27,705 bases of DNA from Candidatus Bathyarchaeota archaeon. GTDB taxonomy: Archaea; Thermoproteota; Bathyarchaeia; TCS64. A program made the position numbers and the translations under genes. The notes under the pieces were generated by a model. That model saw only the letters and a program-made list of their open reading frames with translations, was not told the origin of the DNA and ran no database searches. This document shows, piece after piece, positions 7,349-20,521 of the stretch. The stretch lies in the NCBI GenBank assembly GCA_003662205.1, contig QMXQ01000001.1, positions 1-27,705 on the forward strand, given 5' to 3'. Every line of letters starts with the position of its first letter. Position 1 is the first letter of the stretch.

Positions 7349-8158
7349 GTGGTGGCCCCCTTGACGACCCAGATCGGCATACTTGTGGTGGGGAACGAGA
7401 TCCTCGACGGCATAGTGTTGGACACGAACAGCCACTGGATCATAAATCAGCTGAAGGCCCTGAACCTGCACGTGAAGGAGAAGGTGACGGTCAGGGACGA
7501 GGTGCCCGAGATCGCGAAGGCGCTGAGGCGGCTCATCGCCGACGGCTGCACCCTCGTCTTCACCACCGGGGGCTTGGGGCCGACCCACGACGACAAGACC
7601 CTGAGCGGCGTCGCCGAGGCCTTCGGTCTCCCTCTTGAGCTGAACGAGGAGGCGTTGAGTATCGTCACCCGTCAGTACAGGGATCTCCACGAGCGGGGCG
7701 TCATCGAGACGGCTGAGATGACGGAGGCCCGGCGGAAGATGGCCGTGCTGCCCAAGGGCGCCAAGCCCCTTGACAACAGGGTGGGGGGCGCGCCCGGGGT
7801 GCTGCTCGACGTCGAGGGGGCGCAGATCGTCTGCCTCCCGGGCGTCCCGGGGGAGTTGATGTGGATATTCGACAACCAGCTGCTCGCCCTGCTGAAGCAG
7901 AGGGTGGAGGGGGCCTTCGCGGAGAAGATCATCTACCTGCCCCTCAGGGACGAGTCGACCCTCGCCCCCATCATCGACGAGGTGATGAAAGACGTCCCCG
8001 ACGTCTACATCAAGTCGATGGTCAAGCCCTACGGCGAGTCCGGCATCAGGCTCTGGATCTCCGCCAGGGGCAACTCCCAGGCCAAGGTCGAGGAGCGGGT
8101 GAGCCGGGTCGCCAACCTCCTGATACAGCTCTGCGAGGAGCAGCTCCCCAACGGCTAG
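7349..8158 (+). CDS. CinA-like (COG1058) molybdopterin-binding-fold nucleotide pyrophosphatase, lacking a PncC domain
   Basis: VGNEILDG...DTN, TTGGLGPTHDDKT and LPGVPGEL motifs, followed by a short C-terminal alpha/beta domain. GTG start. Confidence 0.88.
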   Translation: MVAPLTTQIGILVVGNEILDGIVLDTNSHWIINQLKALNLHVKEKVTVRDEVPEIAKALRRLIADGCTLVFTTGGLGPTHDDKTLSGVAEAFGLPLELNEEALSIVTRQYRDLHERGVIETAEMTEARRKMAVLPKGAKPLDNRVGGAPGVLLDVEGAQIVCLPGVPGELMWIFDNQLLALLKQRVEGAFAEKIIYLPLRDESTLAPIIDEVMKDVPDVYIKSMVKPYGESGIRLWISARGNSQAKVEERVSRVANLLIQLCEEQLPNG

Positions 8159-8229: not shown

Positions 8230-9468
8230 ATGGTCGAGTGCTGGCTGCCCTACGGGCGGACTGAGGTCCACCTCAGCATCCCCCTCCGAGACCTCCTCGG
8301 GGTGGCGGAGCCCGACCTCGGGCAGCCGGCGCCGAACCCGCACGAGGTGATCAGGGAGGCCCTGCTGAACCCCAGAGGCGCGAGCCCCCTCGGCGACCTC
8401 GTGAAGCCCGGCGTCTCCATCGCCGTCGCCATCGATGGGATCATCACCCCCTACCTGGCGGCTGCCGCCGCATCGTCCATCGTGAAGGAGCTCAGCCTCG
8501 CCGGCGCGTCCAAGGATGACGTCGTCATCGTGGTCGGGAACGGATGCCGGGAGCAGAGCGCCCCGGAGCTGCTGGAGGCGCTCAGGGGCGACAAGACCCT
8601 GAAGGGCGTGAGGGTGGCCGAACACACGCGCGGCTCCGTGAACCTCGTCAATCTGGGAGCCACCTCGAGGAAAACCGAGGTCGAGATCGACGGCCACTTC
8701 GCCGGCGCCGATGTCCGCATCGTCGTCGGAGAGGTGGTCCTCGACGCCTTTGCGGGGTTCAGGGGCGCCCCCAGCACCGTCCTGCCCGCCCTCTCCGGGA
8801 TGAGGACCATAGAGATGAACCGGCGCCACGCCTTCGAGAAGAACGCCGCCCCCGGCGTCATCGAGGGGAACCCGGTTCTGGCTGACGTGCTGGAGTCGGC
8901 GCGCCTAGCAGGCGTCGACCTCGCGGTCAACCTCGTCGAGAACCCCCAGGGGCGGCTCCTGGGGGCTTACGCCGGCGGACTGGATGAAGCGTGGAGACAG
9001 GCGGTCTCCGAGCTGGGCGACTCCTTCAGGGTGAAGGCTGAGGCGAACGCCGACATCGTCGTCGTCAGCGCCGGCGGCATCAAGTTCGACTTCGACCTCT
9101 ACCACGGGGTCTGGGCCCTCCAGGGCGCGTCCCGGATCGCCAAGAAGGGGGCCACCATCATCCTCCTCGCCGAGTGCTCCGAGGGGCTGGGCGCCGACGG
9201 CCTCACGAAGCTCTCCCACATCGACAGGCTCAGCGAGCTGAGGAGGCGGTTCATGCTGGGCGGGGAGGCCGTCCACCTCATCAAGGCGACCCTCCGGAGG
9301 AACGAGGTCGTCCTGGTCTCGGCCCTGCCCACCTACCTCGCGGAGCCCCTCGGCTTCTCCATCGCGAGGACGGCTAACGACGCCCTGAAATCCGTTGTCA
9401 AGAGGCGGCGCGGCAGGCGCACCGTGGTGGTGACGCACGGCTGCTCGACCCTGCCGTTTGTCGCCTAG
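8230..9468 (+). CDS. LarA (lactate racemase, DUF2088) superfamily homologue with degenerate active site
   Basis: Scaffold motifs LPYG, ALLNPRG, LGATSRKT, ADVRIVVG, GNPV, DIVVVSAGG and AECSEGLG are colinear with LarA, but catalytic positions are substituted (see findings). Confidence 0.85.
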   Translation: MVECWLPYGRTEVHLSIPLRDLLGVAEPDLGQPAPNPHEVIREALLNPRGASPLGDLVKPGVSIAVAIDGIITPYLAAAAASSIVKELSLAGASKDDVVIVVGNGCREQSAPELLEALRGDKTLKGVRVAEHTRGSVNLVNLGATSRKTEVEIDGHFAGADVRIVVGEVVLDAFAGFRGAPSTVLPALSGMRTIEMNRRHAFEKNAAPGVIEGNPVLADVLESARLAGVDLAVNLVENPQGRLLGAYAGGLDEAWRQAVSELGDSFRVKAEANADIVVVSAGGIKFDFDLYHGVWALQGASRIAKKGATIILLAECSEGLGADGLTKLSHIDRLSELRRRFMLGGEAVHLIKATLRRNEVVLVSALPTYLAEPLGFSIARTANDALKSVVKRRRGRRTVVVTHGCSTLPFVA

Positions 9469-10631
9469 AACGGGAAGAGGGCGACGAGGGTCAGGACGAT
9501 CATCGCTAGGTAGACCAGGACGAGGAGCTTCCTGGAGGGGCTGAGGGGTGAGATGTCGTCCAGGGGCGCGCCCGTCTCGCCGCCGGTGCGCATCATGAAG
9601 AACGCGAGCATGATGGCCATGATGAAGTAGCCGGAGAGGAGCATGAGGACGATGCCGGCCACGGACATGATCTTGTGGTTCGCCTCGCCCAGCAGCGCCC
9701 GGCTGATGTGGCCGCCGTCCAGCTGCCACGAGGGTATGAGGTTGATGAAGGTGACGATGCAGCCGACCCAGGCGGCGAAGCCGACGGGATGGAGCAGAAG
9801 GGTCATCCCCTCCGGGGTCGGCTTCAGCACCGAGGCGAGGGCGTCGATGAGGAGGGGGAAGGAGATCGACTGAAACCGGACCTCGGGGAACAGGGCCATC
9901 CAGGCCACCACCTCCTCGGCGGGGACGACGAAGGAGAGCTTTAGCCCTATGATCGTCACTAAAACGGTGATGGCGAATCCGACGAGGGGGCCGCTTATGC
10001 CGAGGTCGAAGAGGGCGTCCCGGTTCGTCGGCGGCTCTTTCTGTGTGATGACTGCGCCGAAGGTTCCGCCCATCCCCGGGGGCGCCGGGATGAAGTAGGG
10101 CATGGATGCCTCTATCCCCTCGATGTGAGCCACCACCTTGTGGCCGAGCTCATGGAGCCCGAAGACCCCGAGGATGGCGAGGGTGAACATGAGGGCGTTG
10201 ACGAAGACCGGCGTCCCCGGCATCAGCACGCGCGTGAAGATGGGGTTGTTGCTCCTCAGGAAGCCGTCGAGGAAGACGGTCCCCGCGGTCGCGGCGAAGA
10301 GGAGCACATTCCGCGTATACCGCTGAGGGCTAGGGGGCGGCCTCCGGGTGACCGAGATGTAGTAGCGGTCGATGACCCGTCTCAGCCTCGGGAGGTAGCC
10401 GAGGGGCCGCAGCTCCAGCACGAGCTTTTTGAAGCTGTTCTTCAACAGCTGCCTCTGGTCTCCCACACCCCGGGGCGAGACGATGTACGTCGGCGTGTCC
10501 ATGTCGAAGTACCTGTCCTCGACGTGGAACAGCCCCTCGACGGCGTCCTCAACGGCTGGGTCGAATATGCGGTAGGCGGTCAAAAAGCCCCTTTCAGCCT
10601 CCGGGTCCTCCTGGACTCTATTCTTAAACAC
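9465..10631 (-). CDS. Site-2 protease family (M50) intramembrane metalloprotease
   Basis: HELGH (HExxH), GTFGAVI, ISGPLVG and NLIPSWQLDGG motifs, with a soluble N-terminal domain. It overlaps the converging LarA-like stop by 4 nt. Confidence 0.93.
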   Translation of the reverse strand: MFKNRVQEDPEAERGFLTAYRIFDPAVEDAVEGLFHVEDRYFDMDTPTYIVSPRGVGDQRQLLKNSFKKLVLELRPLGYLPRLRRVIDRYYISVTRRPPPSPQRYTRNVLLFAATAGTVFLDGFLRSNNPIFTRVLMPGTPVFVNALMFTLAILGVFGLHELGHKVVAHIEGIEASMPYFIPAPPGMGGTFGAVITQKEPPTNRDALFDLGISGPLVGFAITVLVTIIGLKLSFVVPAEEVVAWMALFPEVRFQSISFPLLIDALASVLKPTPEGMTLLLHPVGFAAWVGCIVTFINLIPSWQLDGGHISRALLGEANHKIMSVAGIVLMLLSGYFIMAIMLAFFMMRTGGETGAPLDDISPLSPSRKLLVLVYLAMIVLTLVALFPF

Positions 10632-10715: not shown

Positions 10716-11210
10716 TTGGGCTCCGAGGGTTTCAGGATCAGGGGGTTCAGGTCCGACGATCTGAACCGGGTGATGACGATAAACTTCGAGTGTCTGCCCG
10801 AGAACTACAGCTCCTACTTCTACCGTGACCTGTACCGGCGGTTCCCGAAGACGTTTCTCGTGGCGGAGGTGGACGGCGACGTCCAGGGCTACATCATGTG
10901 CCGTATCGAGCGCGGCCTCTCGAAGCTCCACAGCTTCCGGCCCACCCGCCTGTGCCATGTGGTCTCCATCGCCGTGAGGGAGCCGTACCGGCGGCGGGGC
11001 ATCGCCTCGGCCCTCCTGAGGGAGGCGATGAGGAACGGCAGCGCCGAGTACCGGGCGACGGAGTGCTTCCTCGAGGTGCGGGTGAGCAACGAGCCGGCCA
11101 TCAGGCTCTACGAGAAGCTCGGGTTCTCGAAGGTGAGGCGGAGCCCCGGCTACTACATGGACGGGGAGGACGCGTGGGTGATGGCCGTCCCCATCGTCGA
11201 GAAGGCGTGA
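10716..11210 (+). CDS. Archaeal protein N-terminal acetyltransferase (Ard1/RimI-like GNAT)
   Basis: LPENYS, GYIMCRIE, HVVSIAVREPYRRRGIA (RxxGxA), LEVRVSNEPAIRLYEKLGF and YYMDGEDA. Confidence 0.92.
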   Translation: MGSEGFRIRGFRSDDLNRVMTINFECLPENYSSYFYRDLYRRFPKTFLVAEVDGDVQGYIMCRIERGLSKLHSFRPTRLCHVVSIAVREPYRRRGIASALLREAMRNGSAEYRATECFLEVRVSNEPAIRLYEKLGFSKVRRSPGYYMDGEDAWVMAVPIVEKA

Positions 11211-15319: not shown

Positions 15320-16078
15320 TTATATTCTTTGTCTCAAATTCTGAAGTCCCATCTGACAAAATCTTCGAAATCTAATATGAGCATTTGGATCATAAACCCT
15401 GGCCATTTCTATAAAACCCTCTTTGAATTTATCCAGTAAATCATTTCTTTTAGTTGGATCATCAAAGTCCGAAATATAAATGTTAATTGCCTTACACAGA
15501 TCTAAAAATAATTGATGAGGGCTCAGATAAACATTAAATGGTTTTAATCCAACAGGACTGATGTTTAAATGTAAAACATCATCAAATGTTATTGTCCATC
15601 CTATATTTGTGTTTTTCACTTTTATAATCTTAGGCATTTGTGTGTGAACTAAACCATGACGATAAATATAATAAATTAAATCACCATATAATGTATATTC
15701 TCTTTTTACCTGGCCCAAGTAATCCCTCATAAAAAGATAAGCATTTCTTGAGCTATTACTACCTTTATATAATGCGCCCAAAAAGTCAATAACAGGAAAT
15801 ATTATTCTTGGCAAGGCAAAGAAACCAGACCCAGACTTAATATATGAGCAATAGGCCGGTAAAAAATCGTCAATTAAACTCTTTTTTAAATGTTCTTTTA
15901 GATATCTCTTTGCGCCCTTACAAGTAATCTCGTTTTTCCATTCATCAATAGTAGCATACTCTCTAAAATCTCCAGTATTCTGATCATAGCCCCACATTTC
16001 AAAACTGCCTTGAATTCTGGGTGCCATTTTTATAACACCTATTGTATGATGTTTCTCTGAAAATTTAAAGATTCTCAT
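15320..16078 (-). CDS. Putative HEPN-superfamily protein (RxxxxH ribonuclease motif)
   Basis: RHGLVH at 15644-15661, preceded by helical segments (LPRIIFPVIDFLGALY, FMRDYL, LIYYIY). An alternative start is ATG 16027. Confidence 0.6.
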   Translation of the reverse strand: MRIFKFSEKHHTIGVIKMAPRIQGSFEMWGYDQNTGDFREYATIDEWKNEITCKGAKRYLKEHLKKSLIDDFLPAYCSYIKSGSGFFALPRIIFPVIDFLGALYKGSNSSRNAYLFMRDYLGQVKREYTLYGDLIYYIYRHGLVHTQMPKIIKVKNTNIGWTITFDDVLHLNISPVGLKPFNVYLSPHQLFLDLCKAINIYISDFDDPTKRNDLLDKFKEGFIEMARVYDPNAHIRFRRFCQMGLQNLRQRI

Positions 16079-18060: not shown

Positions 18061-18136
18061 TGGTAGCCCGGGAGAGATTCGAACTCTCGTCAGGAGGTCC
18101 AGAGCCTCCCATCCTTGACCGCTAGACGACCGGGCT
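18061..18136 (-). tRNA. tRNA-Gln(CTG), intron-less, with genomically encoded CCA
   Basis: Reverse complement folds as acceptor AGCCCGG/CCGGGCT (A1-U72 typical of archaeal tRNA-Gln), anticodon arm GGAGG-CT-CTG-GA-CCTCC, T arm GAGAG-TTCGAAT-CTCTC and 3' A-CCA; 76 nt. Confidence 0.97.
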
Positions 18137-19585: not shown

Positions 19586-20521
19586 TTGGGGGAGAGTATG
19601 AAGCGGAGAGAGAAGCTCGGTAGCGAGGATGTATGTCCCGAGTGCGGGAGTAGCATGATCATTCATGACGAGGAGTCGGGGGAGATCATCTGCGGGAGCT
19701 GCGGCCTCGTCATCACGGAGTCCATCATCAATAAGGGTCCCGAGTGGAGGGCCTTCACCCAGAGCGAGAAGGAGTCGCGGAGCCGTGTGGGCGTCCCCAT
19801 CTCCTTCTCCGTCCATGATAAGGGCCTGACGACCATGATCGGCCGGGTCGGCAGGGATGCCTTCGGGAGGAAGATTCCGCTCAAGACGAAGCTCCAGATG
19901 CTCCGTCTGAGGAAGTGGCAGATCAGGTCTAGGGTCCATTCCTCCGTTGACAGGAACCTGGCCCAGGCCATGGCGGAGCTCGACAGGCTGACGGACAAGC
20001 TGCACATCCCTCCGCCCATCAAGGAGAAGGCTGCCATAACCTACCGGAAGGCCCTGGAGAAGGGCCTGGTCCGGGGGCGGTCCATCTCAGCCATCGCGGC
20101 GGCGTCGCTGTACGCGGCGTGCCGCGTCACCCAGACGCCGAGGACCCTGAGGGAGATCGCCAGGCACAGCCCCATAGAGAAGAAGGATATCGCCCGCTGC
20201 TACAGGCTCCTTCTGCGGGAGCTGCGGCTCCAGATGCCGATACCCGCGGCCCAGCTCAGGGTGCCGAAGATCGCGGCGAAGGTGGGCATCGGGGAGAAGA
20301 CGCAGCAGACCGCGGTCGAGATCCTGCGGAAGGCGGAGAAGCTGAGGACGACGGCGGGCAAGGACCCGATGGGCCTCGCGGCGGCCGCCCTCTACATAGC
20401 GTGCGTGCTGAACGACGAGAAGCGGACCCAGAAGATGATCGCGGACGCGGCGGGGGTCACGGAGGTCACCATCCGCAACCGCTACAAGGGGCTTAAGGAA
20501 GCCCTGAAGCTTGACATTTAA
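19586..20521 (+). CDS. tfb: Transcription initiation factor IIB (TFB)
   Basis: Zn ribbon CPECG...CGSCG, B-reader GPEWRAF, two cyclin repeats and C-terminal VTEVTIRNRY. Start is TTG 19586 or ATG 19598. Confidence 0.97.
   Translation: MGESMKRREKLGSEDVCPECGSSMIIHDEESGEIICGSCGLVITESIINKGPEWRAFTQSEKESRSRVGVPISFSVHDKGLTTMIGRVGRDAFGRKIPLKTKLQMLRLRKWQIRSRVHSSVDRNLAQAMAELDRLTDKLHIPPPIKEKAAITYRKALEKGLVRGRSISAIAAASLYAACRVTQTPRTLREIARHSPIEKKDIARCYRLLLRELRLQMPIPAAQLRVPKIAAKVGIGEKTQQTAVEILRKAEKLRTTAGKDPMGLAAAALYIACVLNDEKRTQKMIADAAGVTEVTIRNRYKGLKEALKLDI

Follow-up and report, generated by a model that had tools for sequence, protein, structure and literature searches.

The subject of this study is a 27,705-nucleotide stretch of DNA from a Candidatus Bathyarchaeota archaeon (contig QMXQ01000001.1 of assembly GCA_003662205.1), referred to here as the window, and in particular the gene at positions 8230-9468 of its plus strand. 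The product, P0001, is a member of the LarA superfamily, whose canonical enzymes racemize 2-hydroxy acids by hydride transfer with the help of a tethered nickel-pincer nucleotide (NPN). P0001 has kept the LarA fold and lost the NPN site, and it very probably can neither tether nor ligate the cofactor, nor carry out this racemization. The residues that have taken the place of the lost ones are conserved throughout a clade of Bathyarchaeia proteins, purifying selection acts on the gene, which shows no decay, and the protein from which it descends appears to have possessed a complete NPN site. An earlier note on this DNA, made from the letters and their reading frames, had proposed a selected, NPN-independent LarA-fold protein; that inference is supported, on the strength of residue loss, conserved replacements, and purifying selection. 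Where individual genomes, loci, and families have to be told apart, our working labels (G, L, and f with a number) are used.

The reading frame starts with ATG and runs to 412 codons with zero internal stops. Its product has both Pfam domains of the superfamily, Lar_N (PF09861; E value 1.2e-32, 113.2 bits against a cut-off of 23.3) and LarA_C (PF21113; 1.7e-10, 41.5 bits, cut-off 25), and together with the two-domain fold these place it in the LarA superfamily (COG3875). A search of the PDB with P0001 returned the malate racemase Mar2 (6d6z) as the top match, at 7.7e-52 and over residues 5-411, and LarA of Lactobacillus plantarum (5huq) at 1.2e-19. The AlphaFold2 model, for which 42 orthologues served as input, has a mean predicted local distance difference test score of 94.5 and a predicted template-modeling (TM) score of 0.92. 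Foldseek aligned it with holo LarA (9eid/8ezf) in the closed state with a TM score of 0.89, the range across LarA structures being 0.84-0.89. The description in the earlier note of a full-length homologue with an intact frame and host-like codons is therefore sound, codon usage having a GC content at third positions (GC3) of 0.93 and a correlation of r = 0.93 with neighboring genes. All NCBIfam equivalogs of LarA type fall short of their cut-offs by roughly half; NPN_racem_MAR comes closest (260.9 versus 500 bits), with Ni_dep_LarA at 175.9 bits versus 460, and Lar_N scores 115 bits for P0001 versus 177-211 for canonical paralogues of the same genome.

Residues were assigned from a HMMER alignment to L. 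plantarum LarA and from MAFFT alignments with 89 canonical LarA homologues (LarAHs), and functional positions are named in the numbering of L. plantarum LarA (8ezf/5huq). In those 89 proteins the columns equivalent to Asp72, Arg75, His108, His174, Lys184, His200, and Lys298 hold D, R, H, H, K, H, and K at 99-100%. The corresponding residues of P0001 are Gly70, Thr73, Arg107, Asp172, Ser182, Arg198, and Trp295; in addition Gln295 is replaced by His292, and Tyr294 is kept as Tyr291. The conserved replacements among them give the clade the signature GxRDxRW, and the features concerned are as follows, with conservation figures from 47 clade members.

8230-9468, plus strand: gene for the LarA-fold protein P0001 with the GxRDxRW signature, as judged from Pfam, AlphaFold2, Foldseek, the residue map, and the ratio of nonsynonymous to synonymous substitution rates (dN/dS).
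8437-8448, plus strand: G70-I71-I72-T73, aligned with D72-x-T-R75 of LarA; the ribose-binding Asp (now G70, codon at 8437, 96% kept) and the phosphate-binding Arg (now T73, codon at 8446, variable) are both lost.
8548-8550, plus strand: R107 in place of the catalytic His108, 89% kept.
8743-8775, plus strand: from D172 (codon at 8743, in place of the catalytic His174, 100% kept) to S182 (codon at 8773, in place of the NPN-tethering Lys184, variable), by alignment.
8821-8823, plus strand: R198 in place of the nickel ligand His200, 100% kept.
9100-9114, plus strand: from Y291 (equivalent to Tyr294 of LarA, kept) to W295 (codon at 9112, in place of Lys298, which binds the substrate carboxylate; 83% kept), by alignment.
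9235-9252, plus strand: E336-L-R-R339-R340-F341, a clade-specific Arg-rich segment that aligns with the lid segment 335-358 of Mar2.

Even the most divergent NPN-containing LarAHs have five residues in common, namely a catalytic His, the nickel-ligand His, the tethering Lys, the ribose-binding Asp, and an Arg or Lys that binds phosphate (PMC12611868). Asp72 contacts the ribose of the cofactor, and Arg75 (or Lys) contacts both its phosphate and the substrate carboxylate (PMC12611868). P0001 keeps none of the five. Of the two catalytic positions, His108 and His174, one at least should hold a His, but P0001 has Arg107 and Asp172 there; the fourth nickel ligand, His200, is represented by Arg198, and the Lys184 that tethers NPN through a thioamide is Ser182 here and S, T, N, D, or R across the clade, in which the position of Arg75 also varies freely. 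Since the tethering, ligating, and contacting residues are all gone, NPN-dependent racemization is very unlikely. The earlier residue map was right for five of seven positions and off by one at the other two: His108, which it had paired with Cys106, aligns with Arg107, and Asp69, the Asp that it took to be kept, has Ser71 as its counterpart in LarA, so that the ribose-binding Asp72 is lost as well and the dismantling of the site is more complete than had been thought. The segment of Mar2 that corresponds to the Arg-rich stretch is disordered in apo-Mar2 and lies just before a pocket-lining helix (PMC7583248), and residues 336-341 of P0001 may thus be situated near the cleft.

None of this is peculiar to one strain. 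More than 120 clusters of orthologous proteins were found, at 46-80% identity and nearly all of about 412 residues, those with a named source coming from Bathyarchaeia, and genome contigs hold 404 further relatives with intact frames. The clade is monophyletic (Shimodaira-Hasegawa-like approximate likelihood ratio test support of 100) and sits on a long stem of 0.6-0.8. The recurrence of identical substitutions in more than 100 orthologue clusters makes chance an implausible explanation for them, and dN/dS lies between 0.08 and 0.25 in the 13 pairs of orthologues compared, for which dS (0.12-0.87) is not saturated. The suggestion of selection for a different role, as opposed to decay, is upheld by these ratios and by the preserved length of the frames, and the substituted residues, with 83-100% conservation at the five signature positions, are a property of the clade. 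Additional clade-specific conserved positions are W5, T11, and E12 at the N terminus and E336, R339, R340, R380, R393, and R394 in the C-terminal domain. A new Cys/Asp/His site, which had been envisaged earlier, does not survive the comparison: Cys106 and His200 (P0001 numbering) vary within the clade and were rejected as candidates, and the conserved replacements are Arg107, Asp172, Arg198, and Trp295. General binding of nucleic acids by the conserved arginines was likewise rejected, as the proteins of the clade are acidic, with a median isoelectric point of 5.75. Domain fusions offered no functional hint, the longer relatives being canonical LarAHs with an N-terminal extension or a fusion to a GDSL lipase.

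A relative was found in 149 of the 151 Bathyarchaeia genomes sampled. The trees place P0001 in an 86-row lineage from Bathyarchaeia, which is separated from the general LarAHs by a branch marked 97*. The basal, short-branched grade of this lineage consists of canonical proteins with the residues DRHHKHK, and in many families (f10, f11, f12, f14, f27, f28, and f30) the genome has no LarAH apart from a protein of this kind. Nested among them are degenerate forms: the GxRDxRW clade and the GPVDALM group that is sister to it, and the sublineages K-x-G-H-Q-Y-E and D-x-F/L-H-E, each with a conserved signature of its own. From the basal grade, the status of these canonical proteins as sole LarAHs, and the fact that they lie beside the same neighboring genes as the clade (described below), it would follow that the locus originally encoded a protein with all the residues of the NPN site, D-R-H-H-K-H-K. 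Forcing the 54 degenerate rows into one clade costs 402 log-likelihood units (approximately unbiased test, p = 4e-50), and the distribution of canonical and degenerate states over the lineage tree requires at least seven changes; the signature thus appears to have been lost several times.

The search of P0001's own genome for a canonical larA, which the earlier note had recommended, brought to light three more LarAHs with the full canonical signature (L001:1474-2751, L002:781-2013, and L003:1462-2724). These group with ordinary bacterial and archaeal LarAHs, apart from P0001. All 33 sampled genomes of the window's family, which are related to one another and are not independent samples, contain a GxRDxRW protein and at least two LarAH matches, compared with mostly one in family f11. 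The additional canonical paralogues probably took over any racemase duty, freeing the syntenic copy to change. In family f11 itself, four young erosions (NYHHKNK, DGPHRHK, DCNHRSR, and NDCHQGS; loci L157, L165, L166, and L168 in genomes G090, G111, G084, and G117) have arisen independently and are nested among canonical f11 orthologues, on branches that, unlike those of the other degenerate rows, are short and well supported. The eroded protein is the sole LarAH in each of these genomes, and all of them have LarC, which presumably serves some protein other than LarA.

What may have replaced the lost chemistry can be considered from the residues themselves. P0001 would be the version, in the window's lineage, of a near-universal Bathyarchaeia LarAH at one conserved locus. 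On the stem of the clade the two-domain fold would have been kept in its closed form and the cleft between the domains rebuilt, the nickel-ligand His giving way to Arg198, the pair of catalytic His residues to Arg107 and Asp172, the carboxylate-binding Lys to Trp295, and the ribose-binding Asp to Gly70, with the tethering Lys and the phosphate-binding Arg freed to vary. Arg107, Arg198, and probably Arg339/Arg340 would hold an anionic ligand non-covalently, Asp172 would act as a hydrogen-bond partner, and Trp295 and Tyr291 would provide an aromatic platform on which the ligand could stack; the ligand would carry carboxylate or phosphate groups and might be a nucleotide. That the new cleft residues are among the most conserved of the clade suggests that the cleft is still functional. 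We see about an even chance that it binds a different anionic small molecule in a non-covalent manner, the protein being a ligand-binding or regulatory module and not a redox enzyme.

The genes for synthesis of the cofactor, larB, larC, and larE, might be expected to bear on this question. They were searched for in P0001's own genome (79% complete), in 40 genomes of its family, and in 151 genomes of the class. Its own genome has no detectable larC, and larB and larE are represented by sub-threshold look-alikes. The only LarB-like match there (a weak 41.7 bits; G000:C41:8144-8524, minus strand, locus L007) falls in a frame of 153 amino acids with one in-frame TGA; the gene is probably of the PurE type, or else broken. 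All three genes occur together in 3 of the 40 family genomes. The check proposed earlier thus found them mostly absent, and this turned out to be uninformative, as canonical LarAHs share that distribution: G140, a 2.3-Mb single-contig genome of the window's family, encodes three canonical LarAHs (L119, L122, and L125) with no larBCE detected, and among genomes with a single LarAH that LarAH is canonical in 18 of 22 LarC-negative cases versus 11 of 18 LarC-positive ones. The absence of larBCE was for this reason rejected as an argument, and the claim of NPN independence is founded on the residues. Canonical D-R-H-H-K-H LarAHs without detectable larB, larC, or larE occur also in genomes estimated to be 100% complete (G008, G038, and G067), and within this class it seems common for enzymes of the NPN type to be unaccompanied by the known NPN pathway. 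Scavenging of the cofactor, an unrecognized pathway, or inactive enzymes are possible causes.

The gene for P0001 lies between neighbors that recur at other loci.

7349-8158, plus strand: MoCF_biosynth protein of the CinA-N/COG1058 type, 72 bp upstream of the LarA-like gene; gene callers place the start at 7361.
9465-10631, minus strand: M50 metalloprotease of the site-2-protease type, convergent with the LarA-like gene, the 3' ends overlapping by 4 bp.
10716-11210, plus strand: RimI-type N-acetyltransferase of the GNAT family (TIGR01575, 87.7 bits, cut-off 86.4).

For the first of these the NCBIfam label 'NMN deamidase-related' was returned at 226 bits, under its cut-off of 293. Counted over clade loci with enough flanking sequence, the convergent M50 gene is found at 32 of 36 and the downstream GNAT gene at 34 of 34, and the CinA-N gene lies upstream on the same strand, at a distance of 32-116 bp, at 17 of 35. 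This last adjacency is limited to the GxRDxRW clade, all of whose early branches have it; a single loss occurred, in a subclade of 25 rows. The GNAT gene, the M50 gene, or both also flank canonical and otherwise-degenerate members of the lineage, and in Nitrososphaeria (L107-L115) the same arrangement surrounds a far more diverged LarA-like protein; the LarAH/M50/RimI-type GNAT locus is conserved across the two classes. At one locus of the subclade without CinA-N (L013:3237-5956, plus strand), two overlapping co-directional open reading frames (ORFs) of 416 and 490 amino acids lie directly upstream of the LarA-like gene, neither with a match in Pfam.

Elsewhere in the window, a tRNA-Gln gene with a CTG anticodon (18061-18136, minus strand) is the sole Rfam or ARAGORN match, and together with a gene for TFIIB (19586-20521) it confirms an archaeal chromosomal setting. 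Between 14900 and 16600 there is an island of 24-42% GC in surroundings of about 63%. An ORF of 252 amino acids within it (15320-16078, minus strand), with a GC3 of 0.25 and a codon correlation of r = -0.36 with host genes, has no match in Pfam or PHROG; the island and its ORF are probably foreign DNA. Contig L008 carries the same ORF.

Several considerations weigh against a rebuilt, ligand-binding cleft. The putative anionic nature of the ligand is read from residue chemistry, the supposed grouping of R107, D172, R198, W295, and R339/R340 within the cleft is taken from the alignment, and the protein as a whole is acidic, as noted above for the clade. The presence or absence of larBCE lends support in neither direction. 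The lineage trees come from quick IQ-TREE searches, with long degenerate branches and groups named post hoc. Finally, erosion of the site in sister lineages has been repeated and non-convergent, and the selected function may therefore bypass the pocket. A structural or non-catalytic partner of the M50 protease, the RimI-type acetyltransferase, or both, in which the pocket is irrelevant, would leave the NPN site free to erode repeatedly, as it appears to have done at least several times, and would fit a gene order that Bathyarchaeia and Nitrososphaeria keep no matter how far the site is degraded (see also Table S1 of PMC7583248). We nevertheless consider this improbable: few clade-specific residues are better conserved than those at the former pocket positions, the M50 gene runs towards the LarA-like gene and is hence not co-transcribed, and conserved gene order by itself is no proof of physical interaction. 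A related view, in which the three genes form a conserved functional module of both classes, the LarA-fold protein is mainly a small-molecule-sensing partner of the intramembrane protease or the acetyltransferase, and racemase chemistry was an ancestral and dispensable extra, would account for the nickel-pincer site having been discarded at least several times and the protein itself never lost; we think it unlikely. A heterodimer with a canonical paralogue was dismissed as a general role, being unlikely across the lineage when some degenerate sisters are the sole LarAH of near-complete genomes such as G005; in the GxRDxRW clade it may still apply.

A more serious rival to the ligand-binding module is a cofactor-independent enzyme, in which the rebuilt cleft would run a new non-redox step (isomerization, hydrolysis, or a lyase reaction) on an anionic metabolite. 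Asp172 would serve as acid/base, a carboxylate or phosphate would be gripped by Arg107 and Arg198, and Trp295 and Tyr291 would shape the site; the pyrophosphatase-type protein of the upstream CinA-N/COG1058 gene may be its partner in the sublineages that branch early. A strictly kept set of polar and charged residues at the former catalytic positions, the closed and enzyme-like fold, dN/dS ratios typical of enzymes, and the clade-specific placing of the CinA-N gene in all early branches would suit such an enzyme. It remains a tentative idea, which we hold to be possible but unlikely, given that no known enzyme family has this residue set, that neither a metal-binding residue nor a nucleophile is newly conserved in the clade, that the 25-row subclade lost the CinA-N adjacency with its signature unchanged, and that at these positions the residues of sister lineages are quite different. 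Continued binding of NPN or an NPN precursor, non-covalently and through unconventional residues (for example, Arg on thiocarboxylates), could draw on a fold and closed conformation like those of holo LarA and, by inference only, on a pairing of Arg107 and Arg198 with the anionic groups of a pyridinium-3,5-dicarboxylate-type nucleotide. It is most improbable, because the nickel-ligand His, tethering Lys, ribose-binding Asp, and phosphate-binding Arg are all gone and the Lar_N score is about half those of the canonical paralogues; the rarity of complete larBCE sets in the family, which might be cited as well, is weakened by their equally patchy occurrence beside canonical LarAHs. Decay to a pseudogene, or a loss of function confined to one strain, to which the loss of every catalytic residue, as in a dead enzyme, might have pointed, is refuted by the intact frames here and in the 404 relatives, their length of about 412 residues, the low dN/dS, the conserved replacements, and the host-like codons.

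These results have consequences for annotation. The automatic label 'nickel-dependent lactate racemase', which appears in several names from the Joint Genome Institute, is wrong for this clade, and metabolic reconstructions of Bathyarchaeia that deduce lactate or malate racemization, or use of the nickel-pincer cofactor, from it would be misled. More broadly, the locus offers a rare and well-resolved series in which one orthologous and almost universal protein passes from a canonical enzyme with an organometallic cofactor to several cofactor-less forms, all under purifying selection. It is thus a good system in which to ask what the scaffold of a complex cofactor is reused for.

Among known systems, Mar2/LarAH6 (6d6z, 7s91) and LarA (5huq) have the same two-domain fold as P0001, which shares 38 scaffold positions with canonical LarAHs, including the GNP loop and the motifs GG-x-x-x-D-x-x-LY and AEC-x-EG-x-G; it differs from them in that the residues which bind NPN, nickel, and the substrate carboxylate have all been replaced. 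The single-His LarAHs of Streptococcus plurextorum (9q3k) and Blautia wexlerae (9q3j) depart from the two-His mechanism but still contain NPN, and their nickel-ligand His, the Lys that tethers the cofactor, the Asp that binds its ribose, and one catalytic His are retained (PMC12611868). P0001 has none of these. The closest canonical relatives are the Bathyarchaeia LarAHs at the same locus (L059, L061, L063, and L066), which score 320-358 bits against the clade profile. Like the clade they have GNAT and/or M50 neighbors, and they belong to the basal grade of the 86-row lineage; unlike it they have the full D-R-H-H-K-H-K set, short branches, and no CinA-N gene upstream.

The novelty that the earlier note implied has to be qualified. 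Desguin et al. (2020, Sci Rep 10:18123, PMC7583248) left LarAH groups 12, 13, and 16 out of their analysis, and group 12, made up of Nitrosopumilus proteins such as Nmar_0290, was set aside as probably not using NPN. NPN-less LarAHs at the Nitrososphaeria counterpart of this locus had thus been flagged before, and the core interpretation is already in print for that sister class. That work covers neither the Bathyarchaeia clade and its descent from canonical proteins nor the repeated losses and the set of conserved replacements, which are new here. Our literature search on Nmar_0290, Bathyarchaeota lactate racemase, and DUF2088 in Thaumarchaeota brought up no work on what any member does, and a 2025 survey of the superfamily (PMC11770544) does not discuss the NPN-less groups.

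The likeness to group 12 is close in two respects. The catalytic and NPN-binding residues are unconserved in both, and both have a RimI-type acetyltransferase and an M50 protease as neighbors, the former in 5 of 5 group 12 cases and the latter (COG1994/SpoIVFB-type Zn protease) in 4 of 5 (PMC7583248, Table S1). The proteins at the Nitrososphaeria loci match the clade profile with an hhalign probability of 99.9% over 396 columns at about 21% identity, Nmar_0290 itself lying outside the comparison. They share with the clade the N-terminal motif VE-x-WL-x-YG-x-TE, which in them reads VE-x-WL-K-YG-K-TE, and R107 aligns with their invariant Arg (W104-R105). They are more eroded, many being 330-370 residues long and matching the C-terminal domain only. 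The Bathyarchaeia clade, which was outside the 2020 data set, differs from group 12 in its own G70/R107/D172/R198/W295 signature and in the CinA-N gene that part of it has upstream. It would be best to regard the two sets of proteins as counterparts that share a locus, and not as a single sequence group. Through this correspondence the orphan group 12 of the ammonia-oxidizing archaea gains a much larger family, a canonical ancestor, and, in Arg107, Asp172, Arg198, and Trp295, a testable set of conserved residues.

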